Notes under the pieces: model-generated
Database searches by the model: none
Told to the model about the DNA's origin: nothing
What the model saw: the letters and a program-made list of their open reading frames with translations, nothing else
IMG/VR virus record: IMGVR_UViG_3300028591_000076
Location: 160,001-224,000 of that record
DNA from: a virus
Taxonomy: Duplodnaviria > Caudoviricetes
Length of the DNA: 64,000 bases
Direction: 5' to 3' (one strand)
Translations under genes and position numbers: made by a program
Part shown: in pieces, positions 7,977 through 53,772 of the stretch
Layout of the letters: each line of letters starts with the position of its first letter
Numbering within the stretch: position 1 is the stretch's first letter

Positions 7977-7984
7977 AAAGAAAT

Positions 7985-8003: not shown

Positions 8004-8036
8004 TTTATTTATTTCTAGCCTTATCTTTTTAGATTT

Positions 8037-8820: not shown

Positions 8821-9503
8821 TAGCTCTCCATAATCTTTAAAATTTCATGAATTTTTGGTGTAATATCATTGGGTAATAAACCTTTTTCAGTCATAGTTGC
8901 AAAAAGCATATACCATGTTGATTTTGTAAGGTCCTGAACATTTTTCTCAGCTTGCGTTTGTCCCTTTCCCTGATCCGGCGCTTTCTTACCAATGCGATCA
9001 AGGTATTTTAGTGAATTTCCAATAGCATAAGCTGTAGTTGCTGTAATTGGTTTGCCTCTTAAAAAATCATCAATTTTATCAATTGTCTCATACCTACCAG
9101 AATTATAATGTTCCGGCTTTGCAACCATATCTTTTGAGTTTTTATAATCATCCATAGACTTTTTAGCTTTTGGTTCTTTTACATGCTTTTTTGTAAAATT
9201 ATCAATTTCATCATCTCTTGTTAAATCTACTATAGCATTAATACTTGATGAGTCTAGCGTTGGTAATTCTTCTTTACTATTATTATTCATTGCTTTATCT
9301 AACTCCTCCTTAGGTATCTCTACTGATGGACTAGGCTTATTTTCATCTATTTCTTCTACATAATACCCAGACTTCTCAACTTTCTTTACTAAATCCTCAG
9401 GCCATTTTGATTTTTCCTGAGAAAGAGTAGACTCAATTTTTCCATCTACCCAAACCTTTTGAAATAATGTATCTGTCTTATCCCAATATTCCAACTTTTT
9501 CAA
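8820..9503 (-). CDS. DUF3310 (SaV-like) domain protein
   Basis: DMVAKPEHYNSGRYETIDKI...GNSLKYLDRIGKK...DLTKSTWY. Confidence 0.75.
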   Translation of the reverse strand: MKKLEYWDKTDTLFQKVWVDGKIESTLSQEKSKWPEDLVKKVEKSGYYVEEIDENKPSPSVEIPKEELDKAMNNNSKEELPTLDSSSINAIVDLTRDDEIDNFTKKHVKEPKAKKSMDDYKNSKDMVAKPEHYNSGRYETIDKIDDFLRGKPITATTAYAIGNSLKYLDRIGKKAPDQGKGQTQAEKNVQDLTKSTWYMLFATMTEKGLLPNDITPKIHEILKIMES

Positions 9504-14708: not shown

Positions 14709-14762
14709 ACCCATAGTGCTAGGAATTGTCCGAGGATCAAATTCTCTAGCCTTAAGTTTCAT
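14709..14762 (-). CDS. nrdD: nrdD C-terminal polypeptide, exon 1 (MKLKAREFDPRTIPSTMG)
   Basis: Has its own TAGGAG RBS and ATG just after the stop of the N-terminal gene; encodes the conserved DPRT..STMG that precedes CRT. Confidence 0.85.
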
Positions 14763-14781
14763 TCTATATTTTCACTCCTAT

Positions 14782-18347: not shown

Positions 18348-18580
18348 TTTCTCTTCGCTTTTACTAAGTCTTTTATATATGCTACAGTTACTCTTGTAGG
18401 CTTATCTTCATAATGAAGCATAGCAATATGTGGCGTTAATAGTTGATCCACCACTAACAATTGGTCAGGAGGTACTTTACAAGGACAAACTAAAAAAGGA
18501 TTTTTAATACTATGAGCCCGATAGAAATTCATCGTTTCAACTGAAGGAAACTCAATAAAACAAATATCATTTGGTTTCAA
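18344..18580 (-). CDS. Hypothetical protein
   Basis: 78-aa ORF in the operon; its stop overlaps the sbcC start. Confidence 0.5.
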   Translation of the reverse strand: MKPNDICFIEFPSVETMNFYRAHSIKNPFLVCPCKVPPDQLLVVDQLLTPHIAMLHYEDKPTRVTVAYIKDLVKAKRK

Positions 18581-18583
18581 GTA

Positions 18584-18793
18584 TTACCTTACCTTATTAG
18601 CAGAATGATAAGTCATCATCATTCCAGTCTTTAATAAATCATCTTCCTCAATATAGCCAACATTTATCTGATTATATTGCCTAGACATTTGTTTGCCACA
18701 ATTATCACAGATAACATCACCTATTTTTTCACCTGGTTTAAAATTAACAATTTTAGAGTATCCACATTCACAAATGTAATTCGCTTTAGCCAT
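18584..18793 (-). CDS. Zinc-ribbon protein (FmdB-like)
   Basis: YICECG...CDNCGKQMSRQY. Confidence 0.65.
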   Translation of the reverse strand: MAKANYICECGYSKIVNFKPGEKIGDVICDNCGKQMSRQYNQINVGYIEEDDLLKTGMMMTYHSANKVR

Positions 18794-32753: not shown

Positions 32754-33773
32754 GCTTTTTTGAATTATTTCATTTATAAATCCTGGGTAATTTTTATTAT
32801 CCAGGATTTTTTTATATTCAGTTATATCCGCTTCTCGAAGAATATTCACTCCTAGTTCTTTCATTTTTTCTTGTTTATTAATTTCTGAAAACTTTCTATA
32901 AGGATTATATAAATTACCATTTTCATCAAAAAATTGATCGCCTTTTATTTCTGTAAATATACCATTTATTATGAAATCGGGCTCATAATGCCTTGTTTTA
33001 CCAAAATCATCAATATATGTAAATGCGCACTTAGGATGGTAATCAAATATAATATTTTGGTCTATAAGATATAAGTAAACAATAAGCTCCCAACTACTAT
33101 CAAACTTTTGACCATTATAAATATATTTATAACCCCAATTATTTTGATGATATGGTAGACCAAACCTAGCTAAATTTGTTTGTTTAGCTTTTTCTTTTAT
33201 AGACTCCAGTTGTGAAGGATGCTCTACGCCATATTTTAATAGAGATGTTTTCTTTGCCTTATCTTGTACATCTAAATTACACATAGGAGCTGGTCCACCA
33301 TATTTTTCAAGATTTGTCTCTTTAGCTTTTTTACTAGCTTTTCTACGTTTATCTTCTGTATATGAATTTTGTATTTTATTTACAATATCCTTATTTTGAC
33401 ATGCAAACTCTGTTCCATATACTTTTAAGCAAGTATTTTTTCTTTTTTCTTTAAACTCATCTAAAGAAATGGGATTAGTAGTACCATATTTGTCTTTACA
33501 AGTCTCAGCCATTTTAGACTTCCAATTCTCAATATAGCTATCTTTTGACCCATAATTATTTATAATACTTTGCTTCTTATAACAATCATTACATAACAAT
33601 GTGAGCATACGTGTCATTCTATCCGTACGCATTCTCATTATAACATCTTTTTTACATTCTCTACATGTAAAAAATATATAAGTATTATAACGAATATTAC
33701 TTATTTCTTCCTTCGTCAATTTGTTAATATTAAATGGATTAGATTGTGAATTATTTATATTACTAAGTTTCAT
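32736..33773 (-). CDS. Zn-finger/KYG-repeat PD-(D/E)XK homing-endonuclease-like protein
   Basis: CREC..CNDC; KYG repeats; FDSSWE..YEPDF..TEIKGDQFF; convergent with dut and overlapping its 3' end by 18 nt. Confidence 0.75.
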   Translation of the reverse strand: MKLSNINNSQSNPFNINKLTKEEISNIRYNTYIFFTCRECKKDVIMRMRTDRMTRMLTLLCNDCYKKQSIINNYGSKDSYIENWKSKMAETCKDKYGTTNPISLDEFKEKRKNTCLKVYGTEFACQNKDIVNKIQNSYTEDKRRKASKKAKETNLEKYGGPAPMCNLDVQDKAKKTSLLKYGVEHPSQLESIKEKAKQTNLARFGLPYHQNNWGYKYIYNGQKFDSSWELIVYLYLIDQNIIFDYHPKCAFTYIDDFGKTRHYEPDFIINGIFTEIKGDQFFDENGNLYNPYRKFSEINKQEKMKELGVNILREADITEYKKILDNKNYPGFINEIIQKSLVKRS

Positions 33774-33817
33774 AATATAATTAGTAATTGATTGACCAAA
33801 GCTATAATGGAGAAATA

Positions 33818-33835
33818 ATTTACTCTAGAGTAAAT
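33818..33835. promoter_or_regulatory. 18-bp perfect palindrome (candidate operator)
   Basis: ATTTACTCTAGAGTAAAT lies between TATAAT (33803-33808) and the GAGGAG RBS. Confidence 0.45.
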
Positions 33836-33846
33836 GAGGAGTCAAA

Positions 33847-34008
33847 ATGACTATAAACTTAGAAACATACGAAATTGATACTTTACTTGAACTACTTAAT
33901 CGTAAAATCGAAAAGGCTGAAGCTAAAGAAATTGATGAAGCTCAAGTAAAATATGTAAAAGACCTAAAAAGTATTAAAGCTTCAATTGAAGCTCAAATTT
34001 CTAATTAG
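33847..34008 (+). CDS. Small 53-aa coiled-coil protein upstream of the ncRNA
   Basis: Below the track cutoff; GAGGAG RBS; MTINLETYEIDTLLELLNRKIEKAEAKEIDEAQVKYVKDLKSIKASIEAQISN. Confidence 0.75.
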   Translation: MTINLETYEIDTLLELLNRKIEKAEAKEIDEAQVKYVKDLKSIKASIEAQISN

Positions 34009-34020
34009 AATAAATATAGC

Positions 34021-34421
34021 AGTGTAGCAAGACTGATTGAAAATATTGCTAGCGTTTATGTTACGTATGGCCTTACGCTTTGAACGAAAAGGCTGCTTTC
34101 CAAGTGCATTTGGGCACAGATGCTATCTGTACAGACTAACAATTTGGACGAGTTAGTATATAGCTATAAACTGGAGTCCGGAAAGCTTAAGATACCATGC
34201 ATGAAGTCCAATGGAGTTGACCAAAGCCCAAAGACCCGCTTGATTTTGGTAGTTATTCGTAAGGATAACGCACGTGGACCAGCACGATAATACCTTCTGG
34301 TGTGGAGACAACATCTAGATATACTATATCGCCGTGGATGCAAAAATACGCTAGATAAGCTCCCTGAAACTGTGGCACGGATGGGTTAGTAATGAACCTA
34401 ACGACTACCTAACATTACACT
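34021..34421 (+). ncRNA. Large structured non-coding RNA (~400 nt), family unassigned (ROOL-like candidate)
   Basis: No ORF; ~43% GC against ~28-30% background; terminal helix AGTGTAG/TTACACT; long-range pairs; GNRA-capped hairpins; followed by a terminator. Confidence 0.75.
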
Positions 34422-34431
34422 TAAATAATAG

Positions 34432-34459
34432 GCGCTCTCGTTATGAGAGCGCATTTTTT
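34432..34459 (+). terminator. Intrinsic terminator closing the ncRNA transcript
   Basis: GCGCTCTC-GTTAT-GAGAGCGC followed by ATTTTTT. Confidence 0.85.
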
Positions 34460-34480
34460 ATAAATTTATTAATTTACATT

Positions 34481-35035
34481 ATGAATAAAATATTTGAGTC
34501 AATCTATAACAATAGTAAAAATACTAGATTATGCGAAATGTCAGCAAGAGTTGCATATAATAAAATAAAACCTGAACTTAGTAAAACAACAAATGGCCCA
34601 TTAAGTATAAGTGAATATGGCAAAAAATTTAATAGCTATGAAAATGAGTACTTTACTGATGCCATGGGTAATCCTATTAAAGCGCTTGAATTTATAAAGT
34701 CTATTTATAGCTTAGCGAAAGCTGATAACTATGAACCGCAAAAAATTAAGGATGCTTTATATTACTTTTTAGAACCGGCAAATAAAAAATTTATTATTCC
34801 TAATAATTATACATATATAGATGTAAAAAAGAAACTTTTAAATGGAAAAGAGACTATAATAAGAAAAGATATTAGTAGAAGTGCGTCATTAGATATTTTA
34901 TTATCAGATATAATTGGCGGGCTTGAGAGTAACCTAGATATAGTAGATGTTACTAATAGCGATAATAAAAACCTTTTATTATTTAAGCGTAAAAAACAGC
35001 CTATTTCAGAAGAAGAATTAAAAAATATCAAATAA
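34481..35035 (+). CDS. Hypothetical protein with N-terminal IFESIY..RLCE leader
   Basis: Putative capsid-targeted family; ATTAATT lies 6 nt before the ATG. Confidence 0.6.
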   Translation: MNKIFESIYNNSKNTRLCEMSARVAYNKIKPELSKTTNGPLSISEYGKKFNSYENEYFTDAMGNPIKALEFIKSIYSLAKADNYEPQKIKDALYYFLEPANKKFIIPNNYTYIDVKKKLLNGKETIIRKDISRSASLDILLSDIIGGLESNLDIVDVTNSDNKNLLLFKRKKQPISEEELKNIK

Positions 35036-35062
35036 AATAAAACTATACTAATATATTTTTAT

Positions 35063-35377
35063 TTATACAATATGAATATGGTCTGGATTTCCGCCATTTT
35101 TTATATAAAAATCCATAATAATTTGTTTATCATCCTTGGGAAAGCCATTAAAGGACGTTAACAAACGATCTTCTTTAATAGATAAAAGAATTCCCCGTTC
35201 AAGTGAAAATGTTACCTCTTTAATAATTGGGTCAGAAAAATTACTTTTACCAATTAAATCAAGGCCAAATATAGTGTCCCATTTACCATTTCCTAATTTA
35301 TAACCATGAATAACATATTTCTTTTCAAGCCTCTTAATATTATTTTTAGTATTAAAAATCATAGTATGTTCCTCCAA
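35063..35377 (-). CDS. Hypothetical protein
   Basis: ORF (probable start MIFNTK after GGAGG). Confidence 0.55.
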   Translation of the reverse strand: MEEHTMIFNTKNNIKRLEKKYVIHGYKLGNGKWDTIFGLDLIGKSNFSDPIIKEVTFSLERGILLSIKEDRLLTSFNGFPKDDKQIIMDFYIKNGGNPDHIHIV

Positions 35378-35442
35378 ACCTTTATATAAAATATGTATTT
35401 TTATTAATCTTTGTATAAAAAATCTAATAATTAGCTAAAAAT

Positions 35443-35467
35443 AAAGCTCGCTTTAAGCGAGCTTTTT
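35443..35467 (-). terminator. Intrinsic terminator after the flaA-like operon
   Basis: AAAGCTCGCT-TTA-AGCGAGCTTT. Confidence 0.7.
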
Positions 35468-35474
35468 AATTATA

Positions 35475-35723
35475 CTAAATACAACTTGAAATTATAGATA
35501 ATCCAGAAAGAAAAAATATAATTCCAAATATCATACTAATACTGGGTAATATATAATCTACCATAGATTTTTTCTTGTATTCAACAAAGTCAAATAGCAA
35601 TTGTCCATTTTTTACATCTTCTGGTACATTATCTTCATTTTTTAATAGAATACCAATATTTCTATTAATAATTAAAAATCCTACTAATAGAAAAATAAAG
35701 CCAAATGCAACATCTATAAGCAA
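35475..35723 (-). CDS. Small 2-TM membrane protein
   Basis: Two hydrophobic helices; directly follows the flaA-like gene. Confidence 0.55.
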   Translation of the reverse strand: MLIDVAFGFIFLLVGFLIINRNIGILLKNEDNVPEDVKNGQLLFDFVEYKKKSMVDYILPSISMIFGIIFFLSGLSIISSCI

Positions 35724-36557
35724 TTATTTTGCCTCTTCTGTATTTGTGGGCTTATCCATCAAAGATGCTTCAACAGTTCTTAAACGATTACGTTCTGCAA
35801 CTTTTGCTTTTGCTTTCTTTTCTACTTCTGTATTTGGTGAAATACCAAATTCTTCTTTAAGAATCTTGTTATTTTCAACTTGTTCATCTGTAAACATCTT
35901 ATCATAGATAACTGTTACTTTTCTCAAAAAGAAAAGTGAATAAGGTGAATATACATTCGGTCCACTAGGCGCATTTGTCTTAATTTGAAAACCAACAAGA
36001 TAAAGTCCATCAGCTTCTGAGCCTAAAACTGGGCTAGCTTTTACATCTCGCTTATTAGGATCTGGCTCATAGTTAGGATTATTAAAAATCAATTCATAAT
36101 CTTCCATTGATTTTATTGTACTAAAATCTTGTGGCATTAGAACTCTCTTAACTGGACCAGTTGGTGATGTAGAATAAAGCAAATAAATCTCATCATATGC
36201 TCTATTTGTAGTTGCCTCAATTTTAATTGACTTAATATACTTAACATTATAAATATACCCAGTTCCTACACCATCTTCATTTAAGAATGAAGGATAGGAT
36301 ACTAAAACTTTATAGGACGTAGATATATTTTCTGGTACATCTTTTGCCAAAAATCTAATACCTCTATCATTAGGCTCTAAAATCTTAAATGAGTCTTTTC
36401 TAAAATAGCCAGAATCAGAAGTCATTTCAAAATTAGATATATAATCATAACCGTCTAAATCTGACTTAGCTGATGAGTCAAATAAAACCTTTTCTTCCGC
36501 AAAAGAAAAAGTCACTAGCATAAATGCTGTTAGCATCAATAAAATAAGTTTTTTCAT
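35724..36557 (-). CDS. flaA: Spirochaete flagellar filament outer-layer (sheath) protein FlaA-like, divergent
   Basis: Sec signal peptide (MKKLILLMLTAFMLVTFSFA|EE). Motifs GYIYNVKYIKSI, ELIFNNPNY..D..KRDVK..P, LVGFQI, RKVTVIYDK and RLRTVE line up with the Treponema FlaA pattern as recalled (GxxxNVGxIKSI, ELxWxNPxY, FxGFxI, KDVKIIYDK, VLRYxE). Confidence 0.65.
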   Translation of the reverse strand: MKKLILLMLTAFMLVTFSFAEEKVLFDSSAKSDLDGYDYISNFEMTSDSGYFRKDSFKILEPNDRGIRFLAKDVPENISTSYKVLVSYPSFLNEDGVGTGYIYNVKYIKSIKIEATTNRAYDEIYLLYSTSPTGPVKRVLMPQDFSTIKSMEDYELIFNNPNYEPDPNKRDVKASPVLGSEADGLYLVGFQIKTNAPSGPNVYSPYSLFFLRKVTVIYDKMFTDEQVENNKILKEEFGISPNTEVEKKAKAKVAERNRLRTVEASLMDKPTNTEEAK

Positions 36558-36641
36558 TTCTAATGAAACTCCTAAAAATTTTTAATTTTTATTAATATTA
36601 GCCTATTAAATAATGATATTAGCTAAGACTAATTAATAATT

Positions 36642-37436
36642 ATGACAGAAATAATAACAACAGCCGCAAATGCGTCTACAGGATTTTATATTATAATAGG
36701 ACTCTTAATAGTAATTATTAGCGTACTAATATTAGTAAGCGGCTGGTATCTTATTAAAAATACAAAATCTATCTCTATAGGTAGTCTAAAAATTGATGCA
36801 GCTAAAAAGGAATCGGTAAAAGAACCAGATAATAAAAAAGATAAAGAAATACATGAAGCAAAAAAGAGTGTAGAGGATTATACTAGAAGTATATTATCTA
36901 AACAATTTGACCAAGTAGTTCCTTTTCTTTCATCATTAAGGCCTATATTTAATAGACTCTGCTATTCAATATTAAATGATGCTATGGCGGAAAGCTTAGG
37001 AGTAGAGAGAGAAGTAAGAATACCACAAAAGGATGAGTCTTGCAAAATTCCAGGTAGCCATTATAAAGTTGAAACTGTAAAAACTTATATTGCTGAGCCC
37101 CAAACAAGAGTTTTTACAAACCTAGTTGAAAGTACTGTGGACTCTCTAATAGGCAAAATGGAGAGAGAAATATATAATATGCTTGTAAATAATAATATAG
37201 GTAAGTCAAGAGATGATGTAAGAACATATATCCATATGAAAAGTGAAAACTTAATAGGTATTATAAGAAATTGTTTATGTGACGCTTATAATCAACTAAG
37301 CAATAAAAATCTTTTTGACACAAAATCATATTGGGCTGAAACAGGAATTACATATCCATCAGACTGGATAGAAGATAAGTTATATAAATTATTCGTATTA
37401 TGCTTACAATGTAGATATTCTGATTTCGATGAATAA
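36642..37436 (+). CDS. Single-pass membrane protein (possible holin/lysis-related)
   Basis: N-terminal TM (FYIIIGLLIVIISVLILVSGWYLI); ACTAATT upstream. Confidence 0.6.
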   Translation: MTEIITTAANASTGFYIIIGLLIVIISVLILVSGWYLIKNTKSISIGSLKIDAAKKESVKEPDNKKDKEIHEAKKSVEDYTRSILSKQFDQVVPFLSSLRPIFNRLCYSILNDAMAESLGVEREVRIPQKDESCKIPGSHYKVETVKTYIAEPQTRVFTNLVESTVDSLIGKMEREIYNMLVNNNIGKSRDDVRTYIHMKSENLIGIIRNCLCDAYNQLSNKNLFDTKSYWAETGITYPSDWIEDKLYKLFVLCLQCRYSDFDE

Positions 37437-37439
37437 AAT

Positions 37440-37465
37440 AAAAGGACCAAGCTTTGGTCCTTTTT
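37440..37465. terminator. Bidirectional terminator
   Basis: AAAAGGACCAA-GCT-TTGGTCCTTTT. Confidence 0.8.
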
Positions 37466-37468
37466 AAT

Positions 37469-38335
37469 TTATAACAAATTAACTAAAACATCTTCTGCCG
37501 CATCTTCAGCATCTTTAATTTCATCATCTGTTATAATAGTATTTCCAGCTATATCGAATGTATCGCTACAATAGAATGTAGGTCTTACTATAAGTAAAGT
37601 ATCGTCAATTTCGTCTATATCTACAAGACCAAAACCTGTTTTAAGGCCAACTTTAACATGGCTCCTTATTTCAGGATATTCCTTATAAAATGCACTCATT
37701 AGTTTACCAGGAATTAAATCTTTAAAATATTCATCATTATCAGATATTTCATCAACTGTCTTAAATATACTAATATTATCTTTTGGAAAAGCTTCTTTTA
37801 TTTTATTATAATATCCTAACCAAATAGAATTATGGCCATTCTTATATCCAGCAGCTACATGAGCTACTTCATGAGCAATAATTGACCTTACTAAATCTAC
37901 AGGAAGCCATAATAAGTCTGAATGATAATAAATTGTATTATCTTTTTCATTATATGAAGCTAATGTTGTATTTTCATTTCTAAGCGAGTAATGAATATCT
38001 TTTTCAATACCTAATTTTTCAGCACATAAATCACCAAAATCGCCAATAGTATCTTCTCTAGCTTCTTTTAATCTAGTTACTTTAGCAGTTATAAAAGCTT
38101 TTTCAAATAAGCGTGTATTTTCTACACAAGCACTTTCATCTACTTTTTTAAGTAAACATATATGGCCAGTTTCTTCTTCATGCTGACATGCCCAATATCC
38201 ACTATTCCAATTAGCCCAAGCATCTCTATCAGTACCCCATCCGCCATTTGGATAAGGATTATCATCTATAGATTTTCCTTCTACTCTAGCATTCCAGCCT
38301 AGATTCCAATAATCATCAAAAGTAAGCTTTTTCAT
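37469..38335 (-). CDS. Rmf/CrpP-like N-terminal module fused to a SprT/YgjP-like HExxH metalloprotease domain
   Basis: YWNLGWNARVEGKSIDDNPY...WNSGY; IIAHEVAHV...GHNSIW. Confidence 0.6.
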   Translation of the reverse strand: MKKLTFDDYWNLGWNARVEGKSIDDNPYPNGGWGTDRDAWANWNSGYWACQHEEETGHICLLKKVDESACVENTRLFEKAFITAKVTRLKEAREDTIGDFGDLCAEKLGIEKDIHYSLRNENTTLASYNEKDNTIYYHSDLLWLPVDLVRSIIAHEVAHVAAGYKNGHNSIWLGYYNKIKEAFPKDNISIFKTVDEISDNDEYFKDLIPGKLMSAFYKEYPEIRSHVKVGLKTGFGLVDIDEIDDTLLIVRPTFYCSDTFDIAGNTIITDDEIKDAEDAAEDVLVNLL

Positions 38336-38363
38336 ATAAAAATTAGTAAGTATCTTAAATAAT

Positions 38364-38389
38364 AAAGGGCCTCTTGTGAGGCCCTTTTT
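38364..38389 (-). terminator. Terminator after flaB
   Basis: AAAGGGCCTC-TTGT-GAGGCCCTTT. Confidence 0.8.
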
Positions 38390-38412
38390 ATATATGAAAT
38401 GAATAAGATATA

Positions 38413-39261
38413 TTATCTTAATAACGCTAGTACATTTTGTGACTGTGAATTTGCTTGTGCGATCATTGCCGTACTTGCCTGTTGTAATACTTGATTTTTT
38501 ACATGATTTACAAGTTCTTGAGCCATATCAGCATCACGAATACGTGACTCAGCTGACTGAGTATTTTCTGCTGCAACATTAATACCTTTTTGAGCCATTT
38601 CCATACGATTTTGATAAGCACCTAAATCAGCACGCTGCTTATTTACATTCTTTAATGCTTCATCTAAAACTGCAATAGTTGTACTTGCCTCATCTGGTGA
38701 ATTGATAGAAATCTTTTCATCTGTTCCCTGAATACCAGTAAGTCCTAATGCCTGAGAAGTCATTGTACCAATATATGCTCTAATATTCTGGTCCGCATTT
38801 GCTCCAATTTGGAACTGCATAACTGTATCAGAATCTTTTGCAAATCTACCAGTCAAAAGTGACATTCCATTGAATTGAGCACTTGAAGCAATTCTATCAA
38901 CTTCAGCTACTAGCTGGCTCACTTCGACGGCAATTTGCATACGGTCTGCATCGCTATAAACGCTATTTGAAGCCTGAACTGCGAGCTCACGAATTCTCTG
39001 GAGAACATCTGTAGTTTCCTGTAAATAGCCTTCTGCTACATTTGTAAATGAAATTGCATCTCCAATATTTCTAGATGCCTGATTAAGACCTCTAATCTGT
39101 GAACGCATTTTTTCTGAAATAGAAAGCCCTGAGGCATCATCTCCAGCTCTATTAATTTTCTCACCCGAAGCGAGTTTTTCCATAGACTTCTGAAGAGCTT
39201 GAGTATTAAGTCCTTCCTGACGACTAGCAAAAAGACTAGACATGTTGTGTGATATAACCAT
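38413..39261 (-). CDS. flaB: Flagellin, spirochaete periplasmic flagellar core type
   Basis: [98 protein letters not shown]; 282 aa with no large variable domain, as in Treponema FlaB. Confidence 0.97.
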
Positions 39262-39283
39262 TATTTCTCCTTGGAATTTTTAT

Positions 39284-39295
39284 GACTTCCTTGTC
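39284..39295 (-). promoter_or_regulatory. CsrA-type GGA hairpin in the flaB leader
   Basis: Minus strand GAC-AAGGAA-GTC; a second GGA lies in the SD (AAGGAG). Confidence 0.55.
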
Positions 39296-39411
39296 CTTTT
39301 GGTATACTTAAAATAAATTTACTTTCTTAAGGAAATTATTTTCTTTCTATTTTTTATAAATTTTACTTTAACTTAAAATTAATTTTATTAGTAAATAAAA
39401 GTGGCTAGAAT

Positions 39412-39443
39412 AAATATAGCAGCCTTAAATGCTGCTATATTTT
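39412..39443 (-). terminator. Intrinsic terminator
   Basis: AAATATAGCAGC-CTTAAAT-GCTGCTATATTT. Confidence 0.7.
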
Positions 39444-39459
39444 AAAAGTTATTTAACTT

Positions 39460-39834
39460 TTACTTTTTTGTAATTTTATCAGCTTCTTCTACAATCTTAT
39501 CAGCAATTTCTTCTGCTAAAGTATCTGGATCAACTGATACCTTTTTAGTAAGAGCTGCTTTAACAGCCTTAAATGTCTGGAAAAGCAACGTATAAGATGT
39601 CTGTGTAAATGCAACAACACCACCCGCAAAAATAAGACGAAGTATAATAGACGCTTTATAGAATACGTCACCTGGAACAATATAAGTTGCTCCGAAACCA
39701 GCTGCAGCTGCAATAACAGCTGCAATAAGAGCCATTACAGCATCATTTTCCTTTACTTTAGCTGGAAGAAGCTTTTTAAGCCATTCTGTAAATCCAGCTA
39801 CACCCATTGCTATAATAAATGCAATTTTAATCAT
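39460..39834 (-). CDS. Holin-like 3-TM membrane protein
   Basis: VAGFTEWLKK, three hydrophobic helices, charged C-terminus; AAGGAG RBS. Confidence 0.55.
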   Translation of the reverse strand: MIKIAFIIAMGVAGFTEWLKKLLPAKVKENDAVMALIAAVIAAAAGFGATYIVPGDVFYKASIILRLIFAGGVVAFTQTSYTLLFQTFKAVKAALTKKVSVDPDTLAEEIADKIVEEADKITKK

Positions 39835-39861
39835 TTATTTTCTCCTTAAATAGGCTACTTT

Positions 39862-40554
39862 TTATTTTAAGCAAAAAGTAAGCCCAGTTAAATTTTTAAT
39901 TTCTTCAATATCTACTTTTTGTATATTAGCATTTTCATCATTAGAAAAAATATAGACTTCTTGTATTTCGCCATTATATATAAATACTTTAAAAAATGCT
40001 TCTGGTAAAACTGAATTATTTTTACCAACTCTTCTTAAGTCTTTTCCATATATAGGCCCACAAACAATAGTAACTGACATATATTTATTGGCTAATTCAT
40101 GTGCATATTTCTCATATTTTTGCCATATGCCTCTATTTAATTTATTATGTTGTGGACATATATTACAAGCTCGAAATGTATTTTTTGCTGATTCTACACT
40201 CCAGTCTCTATCATTATTTGGACACATATGTCCTTTATCTAATATAGAGCCAGAATTATTTTTATTATAATTTGAATAATCTGGTCTTGGAGCAGATTTA
40301 CATTTTACAAAATTACCTGATGGTCTAGTATTATTTGTAGCATCTGAACTTTCAGCGTCTTCAAAAGTTAAAGTCCAAATAACAAAAGTAGGATTTTTAA
40401 AATCTATATCATACCACACTTCATAAGTATCATGATTATGATATTCTAGGTCCTTTTTGAAATTTACTTCAACTACTTCATTTGCAAATAAATGAAATGG
40501 TAAAAGGAACCAAAGTAACACTAAAAGTTTTCTTGTAAAATATTTATTATTCAT
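39862..40554 (-). CDS. Exported DNA/RNA non-specific endonuclease (NucA/EndA-like)
   Basis: Signal peptide; LDKGHMCP, NICPQH.KLNRGIW..YE, VCGPIY, LPEAFFKV. Confidence 0.9.
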   Translation of the reverse strand: MNNKYFTRKLLVLLWFLLPFHLFANEVVEVNFKKDLEYHNHDTYEVWYDIDFKNPTFVIWTLTFEDAESSDATNNTRPSGNFVKCKSAPRPDYSNYNKNNSGSILDKGHMCPNNDRDWSVESAKNTFRACNICPQHNKLNRGIWQKYEKYAHELANKYMSVTIVCGPIYGKDLRRVGKNNSVLPEAFFKVFIYNGEIQEVYIFSNDENANIQKVDIEEIKNLTGLTFCLK

Positions 40555-40579
40555 AATATGTAAATATTAAATTGGCTAC

Positions 40580-40987
40580 TTATTCATCCCAATCAATATC
40601 TTCTTTTGCTGGAGACGCTCTAGAAGCTGCGGTGGGAACGCCTTTTCTAGTACCCTCAGAAGGTGGCGCAATATTTGTTGCTTTTACAATAGTTTGCTTT
40701 TTAAGGCCTTTACCAACTGCTGAGCTAATCCAAGCTTCTTTTACAGTAATTCTATTACTTGGTTTCTTAAAAGTTCTTTTTTCTACTGAGTCTACGATCT
40801 GTAATGTAACTCTAGCTTGTGGTCTAACATTAAGTACATCATCCTCGTTTAAGATATCACCGATTTGTAGTTCATTCTGTGATGTGCCATAAAAAACTTT
40901 TCCTTCAATATTAATAACCTTATAAGTTTCGCCTACTAAAGGAAATACTACAAATAATGATAGAACCAATATAAATAATTTTTTCAT
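40580..40987 (-). CDS. Exported FecR-N-like protein of Treponema type
   Basis: Signal peptide; VINIEGKV..LQIGDIL; C-terminal TAASRAS..KEDIDWDE. Confidence 0.55.
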   Translation of the reverse strand: MKKLFILVLSLFVVFPLVGETYKVINIEGKVFYGTSQNELQIGDILNEDDVLNVRPQARVTLQIVDSVEKRTFKKPSNRITVKEAWISSAVGKGLKKQTIVKATNIAPPSEGTRKGVPTAASRASPAKEDIDWDE

Positions 40988-40998
40988 AAAAATCTCTC

Positions 40999-41163
40999 CT
41001 AGACTAATAAATCAATTTTATTTTGAAGATTTGCTTCACTTTTTTGTTTATCTTCTATTCTTTTTTGATTTAGCTCTTTAATTTTTAAATTAAGCGCCTT
41101 TAGAGTTTTACCTTCTAATTGAGCTGCTAAAGATGGCGGCTGAACTATCGTACTAATCTTCAT
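40999..41163 (-). CDS. Small 54-aa protein ending NKIDLLV
   Basis: Below the track cutoff; AAGGAG RBS; MKISTIVQPPSLAAQLEGKTLK... Confidence 0.65.
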   Translation of the reverse strand: MKISTIVQPPSLAAQLEGKTLKALNLKIKELNQKRIEDKQKSEANLQNKIDLLV

Positions 41164-41336
41164 ACTACACAAACTCCTTTTTTATAGTAAAAAGATTCCT
41201 TTAATTAAAGGAATAATAATAATATAATTAGAATATCCTTATTCTAATTATATTAAAAATTAGTCTTCCCACCTTATTATATACTAGCTTATAATATGTA
41301 AAAATATCTAATAGCGCATTAAAATAGCTCGTAATA

Positions 41337-42746
41337 TTAAGTGAACTCTATTATACCATCTGTACATTTTATTGTTAATACAGCATAACTATCCCAGTTT
41401 GGCATTTTTTTAATTTTTTTCCAGTCATTTTTACTACCCGCATAGTTAATAGTTAAAGTAGAATGACTAAAAGCATAATTATCAATAAATTTAAGTGTTA
41501 TTGGTAAATCCAAAGACCTCAAATTATATAGATATGAAAATGCTGAGTTACCTATATGTGCTAAGTTTTCACTTATAAATAGAAAATCCTTATGTGACCT
41601 ATTAAATACAAAATCTTCAATAAGAGTAACTGTATCGGGCATAACAAATTTCGCGTTTTCAGTTACCAACTTAATTGCTGTTTTATTTTTATTATAAAGA
41701 ACGCCATCTTCAAAAGTAAAATTTGGATTTTCTGATGTATCAATATTTATTAAATTATTACAGCCACTAAATGCTTTAGCATGAACTTCCTTTAATGATT
41801 TAGGAAATTTTACATATAGAAAACTGCCATTATGAAAAGCATCATGTTCTAATCGCTCTACCCCTTCTACTATATCTACAGTATCTATATTTTTTAACAT
41901 ATTAAATGCAAATTGATAAATTATACCTTCTATGCCACAACCAAATAATGGATTTAATATAACTTTATCATTCCGCGCTAACTGGCTACTTGATTTAACA
42001 ACTGTAGGCTTCTCTATATAGCTAACTCCAAGCCATTCCTTAATATTTCTTTCTGTAATATTAAACTTAGATAATGATAAACTTTCATCATCATCTTCAT
42101 TTTCATCAGGCTGGTTCCATATATGATAAGTTGCTGTTGCCATATCACTAAGATACATACCAGAATAGTCTATATTACCATCATCATCTTCATAATTTTC
42201 TTCATTTGGCGGGCCATCTTCCCAGTTTGTAACTTGAATCATGTATTTTAAGTCATCTGGGCCCGCATCGCCTTTTCTAATAACTAAAATAAATCTATCA
42301 CCACCATTCTGATATCTATACCAATATTCATTATTATCTTTTGTACCGATACACCATTTAGCGCCTTGACCGCCACATTCTATCGAATCACAGAATACAG
42401 CTGCTTCATAATTATCTACTGTATAAAAAAGCCAATCATTATTTTCATATACTAAGTCAAAGCCTTCTTTGCCCTCAAAAAGAGATTTTCTATCTCTACC
42501 TATTAAATCTTGATACGCTTTTTTCTTATTTTTAGTATTAGAATTATCCGCTAACTCTTTAACTTTTTCAAAATTTTCTATAGTAACTTCATCTTTATTC
42601 TGCCAATTAATTTTATGGCTATATTGCTGCCCTATTGGCGAATCAAAAAAGTTTATCCATTTTTCTTTTTCATTATCGGAAATATCTAATTGATTTATAA
42701 ATCTAGCTTTACTAGCTTCTCTAAGTATATTTTCAAAAATAATCAT
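41337..42746 (-). CDS. Protein with IFENILREA leader, CGGxGAKWCIG domain and C-terminal BspA-type (TpLRR/LRR_5) repeats
   Basis: Repeats such as MPDTVTLIEDFVF and LPITLKFIDNYAF; the N-terminal domain is shared with 59013-60371. Confidence 0.7.
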   Translation of the reverse strand: MIIFENILREASKARFINQLDISDNEKEKWINFFDSPIGQQYSHKINWQNKDEVTIENFEKVKELADNSNTKNKKKAYQDLIGRDRKSLFEGKEGFDLVYENNDWLFYTVDNYEAAVFCDSIECGGQGAKWCIGTKDNNEYWYRYQNGGDRFILVIRKGDAGPDDLKYMIQVTNWEDGPPNEENYEDDDGNIDYSGMYLSDMATATYHIWNQPDENEDDDESLSLSKFNITERNIKEWLGVSYIEKPTVVKSSSQLARNDKVILNPLFGCGIEGIIYQFAFNMLKNIDTVDIVEGVERLEHDAFHNGSFLYVKFPKSLKEVHAKAFSGCNNLINIDTSENPNFTFEDGVLYNKNKTAIKLVTENAKFVMPDTVTLIEDFVFNRSHKDFLFISENLAHIGNSAFSYLYNLRSLDLPITLKFIDNYAFSHSTLTINYAGSKNDWKKIKKMPNWDSYAVLTIKCTDGIIEFT

Positions 42747-43287: not shown

Positions 43288-44145
43288 ATGAAACAATATT
43301 TAGATATGCTCCAGAAAGTTATGGATACTGGAGTTTGGACGCATAATAGAACTGGTATTGATACTATTGCTATGTCTGGATGTATGTTTGAACATGATAT
43401 GTCTACTGGCTTCCCGATTCTTACAACAAAGAAAATGGGACTTAAGAATATCAATGCTGAATTAGAAATGTTTATTAAAGGAATTCATAATAAGGAATTC
43501 TTAAAGGAACGAAATTGCCATATCTGGGATGAATGGGCCAGTTCGGCTATTGTGCCATATGGAAATGATGAAGAGACAAAAGCTAAAATGGCTGCAGAAC
43601 CAGAATTAGGTCCAATTTATGGTTTCCAGTATCGCCATTTTAATGGGGATTGGCGAAAGGATGAAGGTGGCGTTGACCAGCTTAAAAACTTAATTGATAC
43701 TATTAAGAAAGACCCAACTTCAAGACGACTTATTGTTAGCGCTTGGAATCCTCAGCAGCTAGATGAAATGGCACTTCCGCCATGTCATATGATTTATGAA
43801 GTACTTTGTTATCCAGACCAGAAGAAAATGGACCTTATGTGGTTCCAAAGAAGCTCAGACGCATTCTTAGGCGTTCCATATGATATTGCATCTTATGGCA
43901 TGTTACTAACACTTATTGCTAAAGAATGTGGATATACTCCAGGAAAGCTTATTGGATATTTTGGTTCATTCCATGTTTATAAAAATCAGATTGACCAAGT
44001 AAAAGAACAGCTTACAAGAACGCCACATAAACTTCCAACTGTAGAAATTACAAATTGGAAGTCAATTTGGGACTGGAAATATACTGATTTCGAATTAAAA
44101 GATTATGAATGCGATGGTAAACTAACTGCAGCAGTTGCTGTATAA
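43288..44145 (+). CDS. thyA: Thymidylate synthase
   Basis: RTGIDT, FPILTTKK, IWDEW, LGPIYGFQYR, SRR, ALPPCH, QRSSDAFLGVPY, HVY. Confidence 0.97.
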   Translation: MKQYLDMLQKVMDTGVWTHNRTGIDTIAMSGCMFEHDMSTGFPILTTKKMGLKNINAELEMFIKGIHNKEFLKERNCHIWDEWASSAIVPYGNDEETKAKMAAEPELGPIYGFQYRHFNGDWRKDEGGVDQLKNLIDTIKKDPTSRRLIVSAWNPQQLDEMALPPCHMIYEVLCYPDQKKMDLMWFQRSSDAFLGVPYDIASYGMLLTLIAKECGYTPGKLIGYFGSFHVYKNQIDQVKEQLTRTPHKLPTVEITNWKSIWDWKYTDFELKDYECDGKLTAAVAV

Positions 44146-44152
44146 TTTGAAT

Positions 44153-44177
44153 GGACCACTTATTAGTGGTCCTTTTT
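44153..44177 (+). terminator. Terminator after thyA
   Basis: GGACCACT-TATT-AGTGGTCC-TTTTT. Confidence 0.8.
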
Positions 44178-44203
44178 AATTATTACATTCACTAATTCAT
44201 ATT

Positions 44204-45109
44204 ATGAATAAGGAAATATTTGAGTCAATATATAGAGAGTCCCAAAAAGACGAAGATTATGAACAGCTAAGTTATCTATTTAATAAATGGAATAGCCTAC
44301 GTACCCAAACTAGTGAAGCATATAATTATGCTAAAAGTTTTTCAGATGGCGACAATTTTATGGATGCTCAAAAAGTTCATGGGTATAGAGGTGCAAAAAA
44401 TTTTCAAGATGCTAGCTGGCATAGATATGCATACTTAAAAGCTGAAAGAGAAAGAACAAAGAAAGAGTTTGATGAACTTTTATCTAATTGTCCAGACTTT
44501 AATACTGATGACGCAAATAGATTATGTAATAATGAACTTGCTAAGTATATAGATAATCTAGATAAAAAAGGTCTAAGAAAAAATACTGTAGGTATTGAAC
44601 AAGATGAAAGCCTACCTCATATAAATCAAAATATAACAGTAGAAGTTAAATCACAGAAGCTTAGTGCTATTAGAGACCTAAATGGTAAACAAGGCGCATT
44701 TGTAAATATTACTGGTAAAGATGGACTAAGCTATTCATTCTGGCTATTTGTAAATGGTAATAGTGAACTTTTTAAGGATATGCGCGCTATTAAATCTGTA
44801 TCTGGAATAGTTAGTAAAATCAATGATTTTCATGGAAATCCATCGATAATGCTTAAACAAGTAAAAATTGAATATGTAGATATAAATATTTATAGTGAAA
44901 CTGAATTTCAGGATTTCTATGATAACTTAAATCCAGAGCCTATAAAAGTTGAGTCTGAAGAGGACTTACCAAAAAATGCAAAATTATTTAAGACCTGTAT
45001 TAAAGAATATAGTCATGGCTACATATATGGTGCAATAATTAAAAAAATTTATAAAGCTGATGACTTATATTATTTTATAGATAAATCTTGGCAAGACTCA
45101 ATGGACTAA
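44204..45109 (+). CDS. Protein with IFESIYRES leader and an OB-fold-like segment
   Basis: NGKQGAFVNITGK...VSGIVSKINDFHGNPSIML; ACTAATT lies 6 nt before the ATG. Confidence 0.55.
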   Translation: MNKEIFESIYRESQKDEDYEQLSYLFNKWNSLRTQTSEAYNYAKSFSDGDNFMDAQKVHGYRGAKNFQDASWHRYAYLKAERERTKKEFDELLSNCPDFNTDDANRLCNNELAKYIDNLDKKGLRKNTVGIEQDESLPHINQNITVEVKSQKLSAIRDLNGKQGAFVNITGKDGLSYSFWLFVNGNSELFKDMRAIKSVSGIVSKINDFHGNPSIMLKQVKIEYVDINIYSETEFQDFYDNLNPEPIKVESEEDLPKNAKLFKTCIKEYSHGYIYGAIIKKIYKADDLYYFIDKSWQDSMD

Positions 45110-45115
45110 AAAGTA

Positions 45116-45139
45116 AAAGGTTGGTAAATACCAACCTTT
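45116..45139. terminator. Bidirectional terminator
   Basis: AAAGGTTGGT-AAAT-ACCAACCTTT. Confidence 0.75.
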
Positions 45140-45164
45140 CTTATTTATTCCAAAATTTTAATAT

Positions 45165-45617
45165 CTAGGCATTATCTGGATAATACGTAAGCATTTTATC
45201 TTCATCCATCATTGATGCATCAATAAGGCCAGACCTTTTATCTTGAATAGCAATTCTTATTTCCCATCGTCTTCTAGCCATATTAGCAGTAACTTCACAC
45301 TTTAGAATATTGATAGTAGGAAAAACCTCACCTGTTTCTTTTATTAGTAGCGACTCTATTACTTTAGCATTATCTGCAGATAATGGTCTTTTAATAACAT
45401 TTCTAACTAAAAATCCACCCATTGAAGGTCGTCTATGATAGTCATTCATATCAGACATAAGCCAAATTTTAAAAGCTTGAGTAACACAGGCTAGGTCTTT
45501 TACAAGTATTGAACCATTAGAGTCTATATCCTTAAAGTTTACATCAAAATAATTTATTTGGTCTCTGATAGATTTTCTTAAACTACTTATTTGTTTTGCT
45601 ATGCTTGAACTTACCAT
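45165..45617 (-). CDS. Baseplate wedge subunit, T4 gp25-like
   Basis: D..CVTQAFKIWL.S...DYHRRPSMGG.L...P pattern; in the tail operon. Confidence 0.7.
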   Translation of the reverse strand: MVSSSIAKQISSLRKSIRDQINYFDVNFKDIDSNGSILVKDLACVTQAFKIWLMSDMNDYHRRPSMGGFLVRNVIKRPLSADNAKVIESLLIKETGEVFPTINILKCEVTANMARRRWEIRIAIQDKRSGLIDASMMDEDKMLTYYPDNA

Positions 45618-51903: not shown

Positions 51904-53772
51904 ATGGAAGTTTTTATAAATCCTGGCGAAGAAGAAAAAGTAGCATCTCTAGGTTATAAAGATAAAATTAAATTTATTTGTCAAAATTGTAATAAAGAAG
52001 TTATTATTTCTAATAAGTATAATTTTAGAAACCTTCTTTGCAAAAAGTGTAATACAATAAAAACTTCACAAGAAAAATATGGCACAAATAATCCAGCCCA
52101 ATCAAATGAGTCGATAGAAAAACAAAAATTAACAAAAGCTAGTAAGACTGATGAAGAAAGAAAGAATATAGATAATAAGAAAAAGCAGTCTATGCTAATG
52201 AAATATGGTGTAGATAATCCCGCAAAATCAAAAAAAATATATGATAAAATTAGAAAAACTACTACTGAAAAATATGGTGGAATTGGTTTTGCATCTACTG
52301 AATTAAAAGCTAAAGCTGACGAAACATGTATTAGGAATCATGGCTCTAACATTCATGAATATAGCCAAGAACTAGCACATAAAACGCTATTAGAGAAAAA
52401 TAATGGTATTGAACAACTTCGTTTACCTGAAACTCGTAATGCATTAAGAGATTATCAAAATAATCATATGCAGGATATTTTAGATAAAATGTCTAAAACA
52501 TCCCAAGAAAGATATAATTCAGAATGGGCAATAAGTAGTAATACTGTTAGACAAAAATCGCTTGAAACATTATTTAAAAATTATGGTGTAGAAAATAGTA
52601 TGTTTTCACACATAGTTAAAGAGCGTGTACGACAAACAAATATAATTCGGTATGGACAGCCTCAGCCTCCTAGTCGTAAATATTTATTTATGAATGACTC
52701 TTTTGACTCTAGCTGGGAAGTATATTTTTATTTATATCATCTTTTTATTTCAAAGTCAAATATTATACCACATCCTATAGATAAGCATATTAATTTTACT
52801 TATAATAATAAAATACATACATATTGTCCTGATTTTTTGGTAGATGATAAAATATATGAAATAAAAGGCCCACAATTTTTTAAGAATGATGGAACAATGT
52901 GTAATCCTTTTGACCATAGTTTAGATGGTCTTTTTGAGGCAAAACATCAATGTATGCTTCAGAATAATGTAAATATTATTACAGATATAAGTATATATAA
53001 AGACAGCGTTGATAGAATATTAACTAAGGATTTTGTACAATTATTTAGAACTGATATACCTTTTCCATATCCTAATAGTGACTTAAGTGATACCACTGAT
53101 TATGGAGTCATACGGCATTTTCATAAATCTATTTTTGAAGCGTCTAAGAGAGACCAACTTAGTCCATTAGAAGCTTGGAATCAAAAAAAAGACTTTGAAC
53201 GAGTTGCGCTTAATAGACTACAATATGTTGGTCATTGTACACCAAATGATATTCTTCGCGGCTATTCTGTTTTAAGAATAAATGATAAAATATCAATTTT
53301 TAGACCAAAACTTGCAGAAAATTTAATAAATAAATATCTTAATACTTATAGTGAGATTTTTGATCCTTTTTCGGGTTTTTCTGGTAGACTCATAGGCGCT
53401 ATGAATGCTAATAAGTCTTATGTAGGCCAAGATATACATCCAGTACATGTTATGGAATCAAATGAAATTATTAAGTATAGAGGATATAAAAATTGTATTG
53501 TAAAATGTCAAGATATTTTAACTGATAATACTCGTAGCTATGAGTGTTTATTTACATGTCCACCTTATGGTGGAAAAGAACACTGGAATAAAGATAAAAA
53601 TGAAATTGAGAAGTCCTGTGATGAATGGATAGATTTATGTCTTGAAAAATACAAATGTAAGAAATACCTTTTTGTAGTTGATGAAACCAAAAAGTATAAA
53701 GATTATATTATTGAAACAATCGTAAATAAATCCCATTTCACTAAGAATAATGAATATATTATTTTAATTTAA
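51904..53772 (+). CDS. Zn-finger/KYG-repeat PD-(D/E)XK homing-endonuclease-like protein fused to an amino-DNA-methyltransferase domain
   Basis: FDSSWE..YCPDF..YEIKG; FDPFSGFSGR; LFTCPPYGGKEHW; paralog of 10622-12460. Confidence 0.75.
   Translation: MEVFINPGEEEKVASLGYKDKIKFICQNCNKEVIISNKYNFRNLLCKKCNTIKTSQEKYGTNNPAQSNESIEKQKLTKASKTDEERKNIDNKKKQSMLMKYGVDNPAKSKKIYDKIRKTTTEKYGGIGFASTELKAKADETCIRNHGSNIHEYSQELAHKTLLEKNNGIEQLRLPETRNALRDYQNNHMQDILDKMSKTSQERYNSEWAISSNTVRQKSLETLFKNYGVENSMFSHIVKERVRQTNIIRYGQPQPPSRKYLFMNDSFDSSWEVYFYLYHLFISKSNIIPHPIDKHINFTYNNKIHTYCPDFLVDDKIYEIKGPQFFKNDGTMCNPFDHSLDGLFEAKHQCMLQNNVNIITDISIYKDSVDRILTKDFVQLFRTDIPFPYPNSDLSDTTDYGVIRHFHKSIFEASKRDQLSPLEAWNQKKDFERVALNRLQYVGHCTPNDILRGYSVLRINDKISIFRPKLAENLINKYLNTYSEIFDPFSGFSGRLIGAMNANKSYVGQDIHPVHVMESNEIIKYRGYKNCIVKCQDILTDNTRSYECLFTCPPYGGKEHWNKDKNEIEKSCDEWIDLCLEKYKCKKYLFVVDETKKYKDYIIETIVNKSHFTKNNEYIILI

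Follow-up and report, generated by a model that had tools for sequence, protein, structure and literature searches.

Why should a phage carry genes for both the core and the sheath of a spirochaete flagellar filament? The question is raised by a 64,000-nucleotide stretch of DNA (hereafter the window), which comprises bases 160001-224000 of one 239,841-bp IMG/VR virus record (IMGVR_UViG_3300028591_000076; Duplodnaviria, Caudoviricetes; source phage, label G000). A preliminary description, made from the sequence alone, had noted in it a gene for a flagellin and, close by, one for a protein resembling the flagellar sheath protein FlaA. The analysis reported here identifies the first gene product as an intact flagellin of the FlaB3 type and the second as a shortened FlaA homologue, for which the name mini-FlaA is used. 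The most economical reading of the pair is a flagellum-directed module, and we favor, with a probability of about 0.55, a two-gene filament module whose products would use the export systems of the host, enter its periplasmic filament and thereby change or sustain it.

Identity and ancestry of the two filament proteins

The flagellin gene (38413-39261, minus strand) had been described as coding for an intact spirochaetal protein of 282 amino acids (aa), which is borne out by matches to Flagellin_N (PF00669; 133.9 bits, cut-off 26.6) over residues 3-139 and to Flagellin_C (PF00700; 85 bits, cut-off 23) over residues 197-281. Its initial designation as a Treponema-type FlaB can be narrowed to FlaB3, as the closest solved structure is Treponema denticola FlaB3 (10pp_A/9pil) with 362 bits, compared to 349 bits for FlaB1. 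The phage protein belongs to the same length class as T. denticola FlaB3 (TDE1475; PDB 10PP) and shares its short D1 loop. All invariant residues of the D0 and D1 domains are retained, the C-terminal D1 region is conserved, and the TLR5-type motif region QRIRELAV is identical to that of the host FlaB proteins. As judged from the alignments, and thus at the level of sequence conservation only, all four glycosylation sites are also retained as S115, S126, T137, and T166, which correspond to S115, S126, T137, and T167 of the T. denticola protein, the subunit of the unsheathed distal filament in this species (PMC13439194). The terminal regions serving type III export and polymerization appear to be conserved as well, export itself being a prediction.

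In a collection of 185,579 species genomes, the nearest bacterial flagellins show 62-71% identity and come from gut, rumen, and oral Treponema species; no flagellin of more than 71% identity and none of the phage type is present in any of them. Each of five such Treponema genomes codes for three FlaB paralogues, one major FlaA (366-395 aa), and a tandem pair of FlaA1 and FlaA2. Phylogenetic trees were calculated from 61 rows (LG+C20, careful search) and from 105 rows (quick search), using a host reference set of 31 Treponema FlaB1/2/3 sequences. In both trees, all flagellins from phage contexts form a single clade together with 21 further close relatives (ultrafast bootstrap, UFBoot, 95 and SH-aLRT 89; SH-aLRT 95), which is the sister of the Treponema FlaB3-type clades in the 105-row tree. 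Eight alignment columns distinguish the phage flagellins from those of the hosts, and two of the phage proteins, from the contigs L011 and L008, are placed on long branches (0.47-0.95). Ratios of nonsynonymous to synonymous substitution rates (dN/dS) of 0.07-0.33, calculated after Nei and Gojobori, show that the flagellin is under purifying selection over its full length. The phage-specific clade and low dN/dS values, which the preliminary description had named as possible support for its view, are thus present.

The name FlaA-like for the second protein stands with respect to its descent and fold, but the protein falls short of a full FlaA by some 75-100 aa. Against the Pfam family FlaA (PF04620, cut-off 25 bits), mini-FlaA scores 34 bits over profile positions 110-224 of 230 only (32.8 bits in the genome search), where host FlaA reaches 243-265 bits and host FlaA1/2 reach 93-151 bits. 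A phmmer search of 1.84 billion representative proteins retrieved 45 related clusters with lengths of about 265-294 aa and no canonical FlaA, and all members of known context are located on phage contigs; among 301 Treponemataceae genomes, no match was found at E<=1e-30. While a single mini-FlaA protein used as query did not retrieve any related loci from viral contigs, the family profile recovered them. This profile, built from 42 members, matches the solved T. denticola FlaA structures 9pim_BR (E=1.8e-23) and 10pl_Ab (E=4.8e-21), aligning mini-FlaA residues 96-270 with FlaA residues 171-336 as well as the signal peptides of both proteins, whereas FlaA residues 35-170 (approximately) are matched by just residues 32-95 of the phage protein (277 versus 349-395 aa in total length). 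Because the profile scores 66-81 bits with the major FlaA of the hosts and at most 10 bits with FlaA1 or FlaA2, mini-FlaA can be derived from the former, the major sheath protein.

A FlaA fold for the product of 35724-36557, which the preliminary description had proposed to look for, was recovered by the profile, by Foldseek, and by VIA. The AlphaFold (AF2) model of the protein (pLDDT 88.7, pTM 0.82) is closest to the Leptospira sheath protein FlaA1 (9cyn) with a Foldseek E-value of 9e-6, and superposition by VIA aligns 174 residues with Z=12.7 and a root mean square deviation of 3.8 A, the Z-score exceeding that of generic carbohydrate-binding beta-sandwiches by 2 units. By inspection, the hydrophobic N-terminus ends in Ser-Phe-Ala as the cleavage motif and is followed, like that of T. 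denticola FlaA, by Glu-Glu, and a Sec-exported periplasmic protein is predicted from this signal peptide. Mini-FlaA also shares with the major FlaA of Treponema (TDE1712; PDB 10PL, 9PIM) the beta-sandwich, a helical tail at the C-terminus, and the YDK core motif, and it has a Lys where FlaA carries the core-contacting K317. The dN/dS values among closer pairs are 0.07-0.19. As far as sequences and the structural model can tell, mini-FlaA is a shortened and strongly diverged, phage-only branch of the FlaA family.

Residence in jumbo phages and exchange of flagellin alleles

Co-occurrence of the two genes in related phages, another point raised in the preliminary description, is evident from at least nine lineages of jumbo phages from independent assemblies, in which the genes are located at most 4 kb apart. 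These are represented by G000 and the contigs L117 (312 kb), L011 (554 kb), L008 (295 kb, an NCBI assembly), L119, L114/L139 (325 kb), L006, G001 (386 kb, complete), and L137/L138. The paired contigs span 194-554 kb and originate from sheep gut, pig gut, and other samples, and all carriers found are of animal-gut origin. The two genes are directly adjacent in L114/L139 from pig gut, while the pair of L006 is located on a 4.9-kb fragment which also carries a terminase gene. No FlaA-like gene was seen in L003, L004, and L140, whose flanks are too short to judge. The gene order of G000, consisting of genes for a leucine-rich-repeat (LRR) protein, a small secreted protein, a secreted nuclease, the flagellin, a SprT-like protein, a membrane protein, and mini-FlaA, is repeated in L117 and L011 and, with some rearrangement, in L008. 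For one of the flagellin alleles, the assembly collection lists 156 blocks.

The filament genes are resident phage genes, and a chimeric origin of the locus is excluded, because independent assemblies agree in the order of the genes and exactly matching contigs extend across the junctions. Logan contigs of the probable source run cover positions 34000-39514 and 39487-41500 of the window with zero differences, and a relative of about 93% identity is present in a second study. The claim of a phage-like base composition is likewise in accord with the GC contents at third codon positions (GC3), which amount to 0.216 for the flagellin gene and 0.183 for that of mini-FlaA and fall within the range of the other phage genes (0.12-0.27), as opposed to 0.37-0.57 for host flaB3 genes. 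Terminator-like hairpins, nine of which were found compared to 2.3 expected, bracket the filament units as had been described (35443-35465, 37440-37464, and 38364-38387). A misjoined host fragment or a decaying passenger would fit the flagellin gene of the complete phage G001 (L005:10001-10848), the frame of which is broken around codon 43. Yet the proteins P0098 and P0107, encoded on other contigs of about 389 kb, match the intact portion of that flagellin downstream of the break with full or almost full identity, so this break must be an assembly error or a strain-level loss. Together with the synteny over many assemblies and studies, the bridged junctions, the phage-like GC3, the phage-only clade, and dN/dS values far below 1, this makes such an artifact a negligible explanation.

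As judged from its sequence, the carrier looks like a virulent jumbo phage of roughly 300 kb which infects Treponema of the gut or rumen. The completeness of G000 is estimated at 76% by CheckV, and all absences from it are therefore provisional; the standard genetic code fits, and alternative codes are not needed. Its large terminase gene is located at 43,576-45,549 of the record and codes for a protein of 49% identity to that of L006, which matches annotated terminases of cultured phages. Searches for integrases (PF00589) were negative in both G000 and the complete 386-kb genome of G001, serine recombinases being outside their scope. The context of T4-like capsid, tail, and nrd genes assigned in the preliminary description was only partly recovered. 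It holds for nrd, represented by a split nrdD gene, and for the capsid by way of 46.5% identity to a protein from a relative that carries the Pfam Gp23 domain, while Phage_sheath_1 gave no match. A Gp23-like capsid in the window is thus supported only indirectly: the open reading frame (ORF) at 61471-63111 itself has no Pfam match, and genome searches with Gp23 and Phage_sheath_1 were negative, that for Gp23 being silent in control genomes as well. When 50,697 phage records were searched, the DNA of positions 35000-40000 had no match, and the flagellin protein retrieved only 12 records, all below 60% identity and lacking annotation; most of them are short fragments or resemble prophages, and none is of use as a relative.

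A view on the relatedness of neighboring genes shows the flagellin gene to be a hot spot of recombination. Between the window and L117, the neighboring genes are 91-99% identical with synonymous divergences (dS) of mostly 0.19-0.29, but the flagellins show just 82% identity and a dS of 0.72. In the comparison with L011, the flagellin identity drops to 58%, whereas the genes for the SprT-like protein, the membrane protein, the LRR protein, and the helicase retain 84-95%. The L117 flagellin is itself a mosaic, residues 1-160 resembling those of the window and of P0124 and residues 201-282 being 95-100% identical to P0188. An additional ORF of 307 aa directly follows the flagellin gene of L117 on its 3' side. 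The L008 locus (6962-8991) contains a Flagellin_N fragment of 93 aa (70% identity to the N-terminus of the window flagellin), a 288-aa ORF of unknown family, and a complete divergent flagellin (59-62%), an arrangement resembling a scar left when one allele was replaced by another.

Regulation, possible function and rival explanations

The leader of the window flagellin contains a CsrA-type GGA motif (GACAAGGAAGTC, 39284-39295) and a GGA-containing Shine-Dalgarno sequence (CCAAGGAG, 39267-39274), and most phage flagellin leaders likewise have a GGA motif about 25-45 nt 5' of a GGA-containing Shine-Dalgarno sequence. The upstream GGA is located in a hairpin loop, the stem of which varies by lineage (GGGAC/GTCCC in L119, with -14.7 kcal/mol and z=-3.3; TCTAG/CTAGA in L137; GAC/GTC in the window, L117, L114, and L008). 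This two-site layout is that of known CsrA targets (PMC9481697) and matches the leaders of host flaB1 rather than flaB3. The phage flagellin leader therefore looks like a CsrA target, and the phage flagellin would be limited by the FliW/CsrA switch of the host instead of overriding it. The rewiring of this switch proposed in the preliminary description is disfavored by this type of leader and by the lack of any FliW, CsrA, or FliS gene in G000. Sigma-28-like promoters (TAAAG..[GT]NCGATAA) precede the flagellin genes of L003, L004, L114, and L119, and a sigma-28-like -10 box (GCCGATTA) that of L139. A metatranscriptome of sheep gut, belonging to a different study and sample, includes one exactly matching contig which extends over 35474-36609, contains the genes for mini-FlaA and the 82-aa protein, and ends at the terminator; further ones cover the flagellin gene and its leader (38425-39514). 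The read depth of the RNA runs over the flagellin gene was not used, because host flagellin contigs contribute to it.

In the mechanism which we favor, the flagellin mRNA would be produced during infection from its own transcription unit, and its translation would be gated by host CsrA and FliW via the GGA sites of the leader. The protein would then be exported by the flagellar type III apparatus with the aid of host FliS, be glycosylated by host enzymes at the four conserved Ser and Thr residues, and polymerize at the tip of the growing periplasmic flagellum. Mini-FlaA would pass the inner membrane by the Sec system, lose its signal peptide, and coat the core. The infected cell may thus build, or keep building, a filament of phage-specified composition, and altered or sustained motility and cell mechanics would benefit the phage.

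A precedent is provided by the flagellin-remodeling prophages (FR-phi) of Enterobacter and relatives, which code for the flagellin FliC-P and the RNA-guided repressor TldR (PMC13418256; bioRxiv 10.1101/2023.11.30.569447). FliC-P, which has been called the first known prophage-encoded flagellin, replaces the host flagellin in Enterobacter filaments, while TldR silences the host gene (PMC13418256). The principle of a phage-borne flagellin diverged from that of the host is shared by both systems, export, filament replacement, and changed motility having been demonstrated for FR-phi. They differ in the type of phage, the carriers described here being jumbo phages of 240-550 kb in which no integrase was found, in the organelle, which is the periplasmic flagellum of spirochaetes, in the presence of a sheath-protein homologue next to the flagellin, and in the lack of any TldR- or TnpB-like gene in the 76%-complete G000. 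Differences are also apparent toward the host counterparts. Unlike Treponema FlaB3, the phage flagellins are only 62-71% identical to any host FlaB, are set apart by the eight columns mentioned, include mosaic alleles and two D0 types, and are preceded by leaders resembling those of flaB1, while mini-FlaA differs from Treponema FlaA by its length of 277 instead of 349-395 aa, the missing N-terminal elaboration, and its Pfam score (34 versus 243-265 bits).

Another parallel is offered by cyanophage psbA, a phage-borne version of a heavily used host protein in a lytic phage. As in that case, a building block of the phage's own would keep a host machine running during infection, but two interacting structural partners, one of them remodeled, are involved here. 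Flagellar filaments are not known for a fast turnover.

Several observations weigh against the proposed filament module. Export, filament incorporation, and core binding are predictions from sequence, and the assignment of the host is based solely on protein similarity. Mini-FlaA is devoid of about 75-100 residues of the N-terminal part of FlaA, including the stretch in which S86, R104, and K109 contact the core and the lattice in the T. denticola protein (PMC13439194). The combination of a FlaB3-type core with a sheath protein is an unexpected match, as the FlaB3 filaments of T. denticola are unsheathed (PMC13439194). Two alternative types of the C-terminal D0 helix occur among the phage alleles, the second of them non-canonical, and the entropy of this helix is 1.04 among phages versus 0.27 among hosts, which would not be expected of a subunit with a purely structural role. 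In the window itself, folding of the leader against shuffled sequences gave no significant structure (z=0.31), and neither the sigma-28 pattern nor a sigma-28 -10 box is found upstream of the flagellin gene; the six matches to the pattern in the genome are located elsewhere. Finally, the contigs from the RNA libraries are consistent with transcription of both genes but do not prove it.

Some of these features would also be expected of proteins which poison the filament or its export. Dominant-negative subunits might stop filament growth or strip the sheath, either halting motility and saving proton-motive force and protein synthesis for the phage, or changing the cell shape for assembly and lysis. 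The N-terminal segment missing from mini-FlaA with its core and lattice contacts (PMC13439194), the unusual variability and two alternative types of the C-terminal D0 helix, the long branches of the L011 and L008 flagellins, and the fact that no gene for a cap, chaperone, or glycosylation protein was found alongside the pair (searches for FliD and Maf/MptE-like genes in G000 and G001 and for NeuB in G000 were negative) all agree with this explanation. We still consider it unlikely, as the window flagellin does not deviate from the canonical residue at any invariant D0/D1 position or glycosylation site and is under purifying selection over its whole length. Nor would a poison require that a matching sheath partner be retained over nine lineages, and FliC-P forms working and even better filaments (PMC13418256).

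A cytoplasmic role appears even less probable, in which the phage flagellin would act as a decoy and titrate host FliW, and also FliS, any filament assembly being incidental; the freed CsrA would then turn off the synthesis of host flagellin and affect other CsrA targets. The partner switch of FliW, CsrA, and flagellin does exist in spirochaetes, T. denticola possessing a flgK-flgL-fliW-csrA cluster and CsrA sites at flaB1 and flaB2 (PMC9481697), and both the conserved C-terminal D1 region and the lack of phage-owned FliW, CsrA, and FliS would suit a decoy. It would not account, however, for the association with a Sec-exported homologue of the sheath protein throughout the clade, and the regions for glycosylation, export, and polymerization are under selection although a decoy has no need of them. 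As the phage leaders share the GGA sites of host flaB1, the freed CsrA would moreover silence the decoy itself. An effect on the animal host, in which altered filaments lower or redirect the recognition of infected or carrier-state Treponema by TLR5 or antibodies, is very improbable. It may be suggested by the weaker TLR5 signaling and better gut colonization conferred by FliC-P filaments (PMC13418256) and by the animal-gut origin of all carriers found, but periplasmic flagella are concealed beneath the outer membrane, and the TLR5-type region does not differ from that of the host FlaBs. Since no integrase was found in G000 or the complete G001, long-term lysogenic conversion is also unlikely.

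The filament module favored above can be extended to a more far-reaching and clearly more tentative view, according to which a virulent clade of jumbo phages steers the locomotion of spirochaetes. A FlaB3-like core and a co-evolved mini-FlaA might then form a distinct phage-made segment or coat, timed by host sigma-28 and the CsrA-FliW checkpoint, and swimming or cell shape might be changed in favor of phage production or spread. Phages would shuffle flagellin alleles among themselves to track the filament types of their hosts, and the GGDEF/EAL genes of one lineage (see below) would add control of motility by cyclic di-GMP (c-di-GMP).

Neighboring genes and wider meaning

The coordinates of the features of the locus are compiled in Table 1.

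Table 1. Features of the filament gene locus and related loci (window positions unless a contig is named).
Feature	Position	Strand	Basis or remark
Phage flagellin, FlaB3-type core (D0/D1 only), 282 aa, intact	38413-39261	-	Pfam, PDB match, tree, dN/dS
Mini-FlaA, 277 aa, shortened homologue of major flagellar sheath protein FlaA	35724-36557	-	Pfam, profile, fold
Flagellin promoter/leader region	39262-39413	-	Sequence
Terminator-like hairpin ending mini-FlaA unit	35443-35465		
Terminator-like hairpin flanking unit	37440-37464		
Bidirectional terminator-like hairpin 3' of flagellin gene	38364-38387		10 pairs, 6 G-C
Terminator-like hairpin between 124-aa gene and flagellin unit	39414-39440	-	10-bp stem, 7-nt loop, T-rich tail
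Two-transmembrane-helix protein, 82 aa	35475-35723	-	Abuts mini-FlaA stop codon; kept after mini-FlaA in L011
N-terminal transmembrane-helix protein, 264 aa	36642-37436	+	ORF, opposite strand to filament genes
SprT/YgjP-like HExxH metalloprotease-like protein, 288 aa	37469-38335	-	Sub-threshold Pfam: YgjP-like 25 bits, SprT-like 24.6 bits
Membrane protein, 124 aa, directly upstream of flagellin	39460-39834	-	ORF; no family match
DNA/RNA non-specific endonuclease, apparent N-terminal signal peptide	39862-40554	-	Pfam 121 bits
135-aa protein, similar hydrophobic N-terminus, unknown family	40580-40987	-	
BspA-type leucine-rich-repeat protein	41337-42746	-	
Gp23-like major capsid protein (indirect support)	61471-63111	-	46.5% identity over 563 aa to L140 protein with Pfam Gp23 match
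GGDEF or GGDEF+EAL proteins (c-di-GMP turnover, motility signal)	L137:2317-4017, 14103-15179, 16882-18690		Same in L138

Among the genes located between and beside the filament genes, the SprT-like protein is syntenic in L011 and L117 with 90-94% identity and absent from the module in the other lineages; it may conceivably be connected with the processing of flagellin. The 264-aa protein shows 84-97% identity in the same two contigs and dN/dS values of 0.04-0.07, and Pfam and PHROGs scans did not assign it to any family. The 124-aa membrane protein occupies the same position in L117 and in the otherwise divergent G001 (73% identity, L005:9409-9783), and the run of genes for the endonuclease, the 135-aa protein, and the LRR protein beside the filament module is kept in L117 and L011.

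Other lineages have different genes in the vicinity of the module. The L137/L138 lineage, with contigs of up to 579 kb, carries the three GGDEF or GGDEF+EAL proteins listed in Table 1 within 8 kb of its flagellin and FlaA-like genes. In L119, the FlaA-like gene is directly followed by a gene for a 253-aa sigma factor (7600-8361; Sigma70_r2 and r4), no homologue of which is encoded in G000. IS605-type TnpB genes are found near the flagellin modules of L114 (15465-16835, minus strand), L139 (13169-14494, minus strand), and L138 (21-1205). The L114 protein retains the RuvC-like D/E/D motifs, which suggests an active TnpB instead of a repressor of the TldR type. A tblastn search of G000 with this protein did not detect any TnpB- or TldR-like sequence, and none appeared in the Pfam scans of the module genes.

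Elsewhere in the window, an SbcC-like nuclease and a helicase are encoded, and the gene for the anaerobic ribonucleotide reductase NrdD (12529-16212, minus strand) is split into ORFs of 476 and 376 aa, which are separated by an ORF of 251 aa; large genes resembling those of homing endonucleases occur in its vicinity (6241-7695, 10622-12460, and 51904-53772). Large ORFs of 901, 788, 721, 766, 606, 546, and 452 aa in the window have no matches in Pfam or PHROGs. A non-coding, GC-richer stretch of about 430 nt (34012-34462, plus strand), which ends in a strong terminator hairpin, is a candidate for a phage non-coding RNA. Exactly matching contigs from two sheep-gut RNA libraries cover it at depths of 67x and 14x, clearly above those of the neighboring genes; it has no Rfam match at E<=0.1 and a folding z-score of -1.66. 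An Rfam search of positions 33000-41500 yielded just a sub-threshold match to Trp_leader, which lies on a terminator.

Flagellins encoded by phages became known only recently, from the temperate prophages of Enterobacter. No paper on flagellin or FlaA genes in jumbo phages or Treponema phages was found by searches of a full-text library, and a 2026 review of jumbo phages does not mention a phage flagellin. The findings extend the idea of phage-encoded flagellins to giant, apparently lytic phages, to the internal flagellum which gives spirochaetes their shape and invasive motility, and to a pair of structural proteins representing both core and sheath. The module is common in gut metagenomes. 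Mini-FlaA, as a naturally minimized sheath protein, may serve as a probe of the binding between FlaA and the filament core, the phage alleles represent a natural set of recombinant FlaB proteins, and the pair as a whole would offer a handle on the biology of the phages of Treponema, which are so far uncultured.

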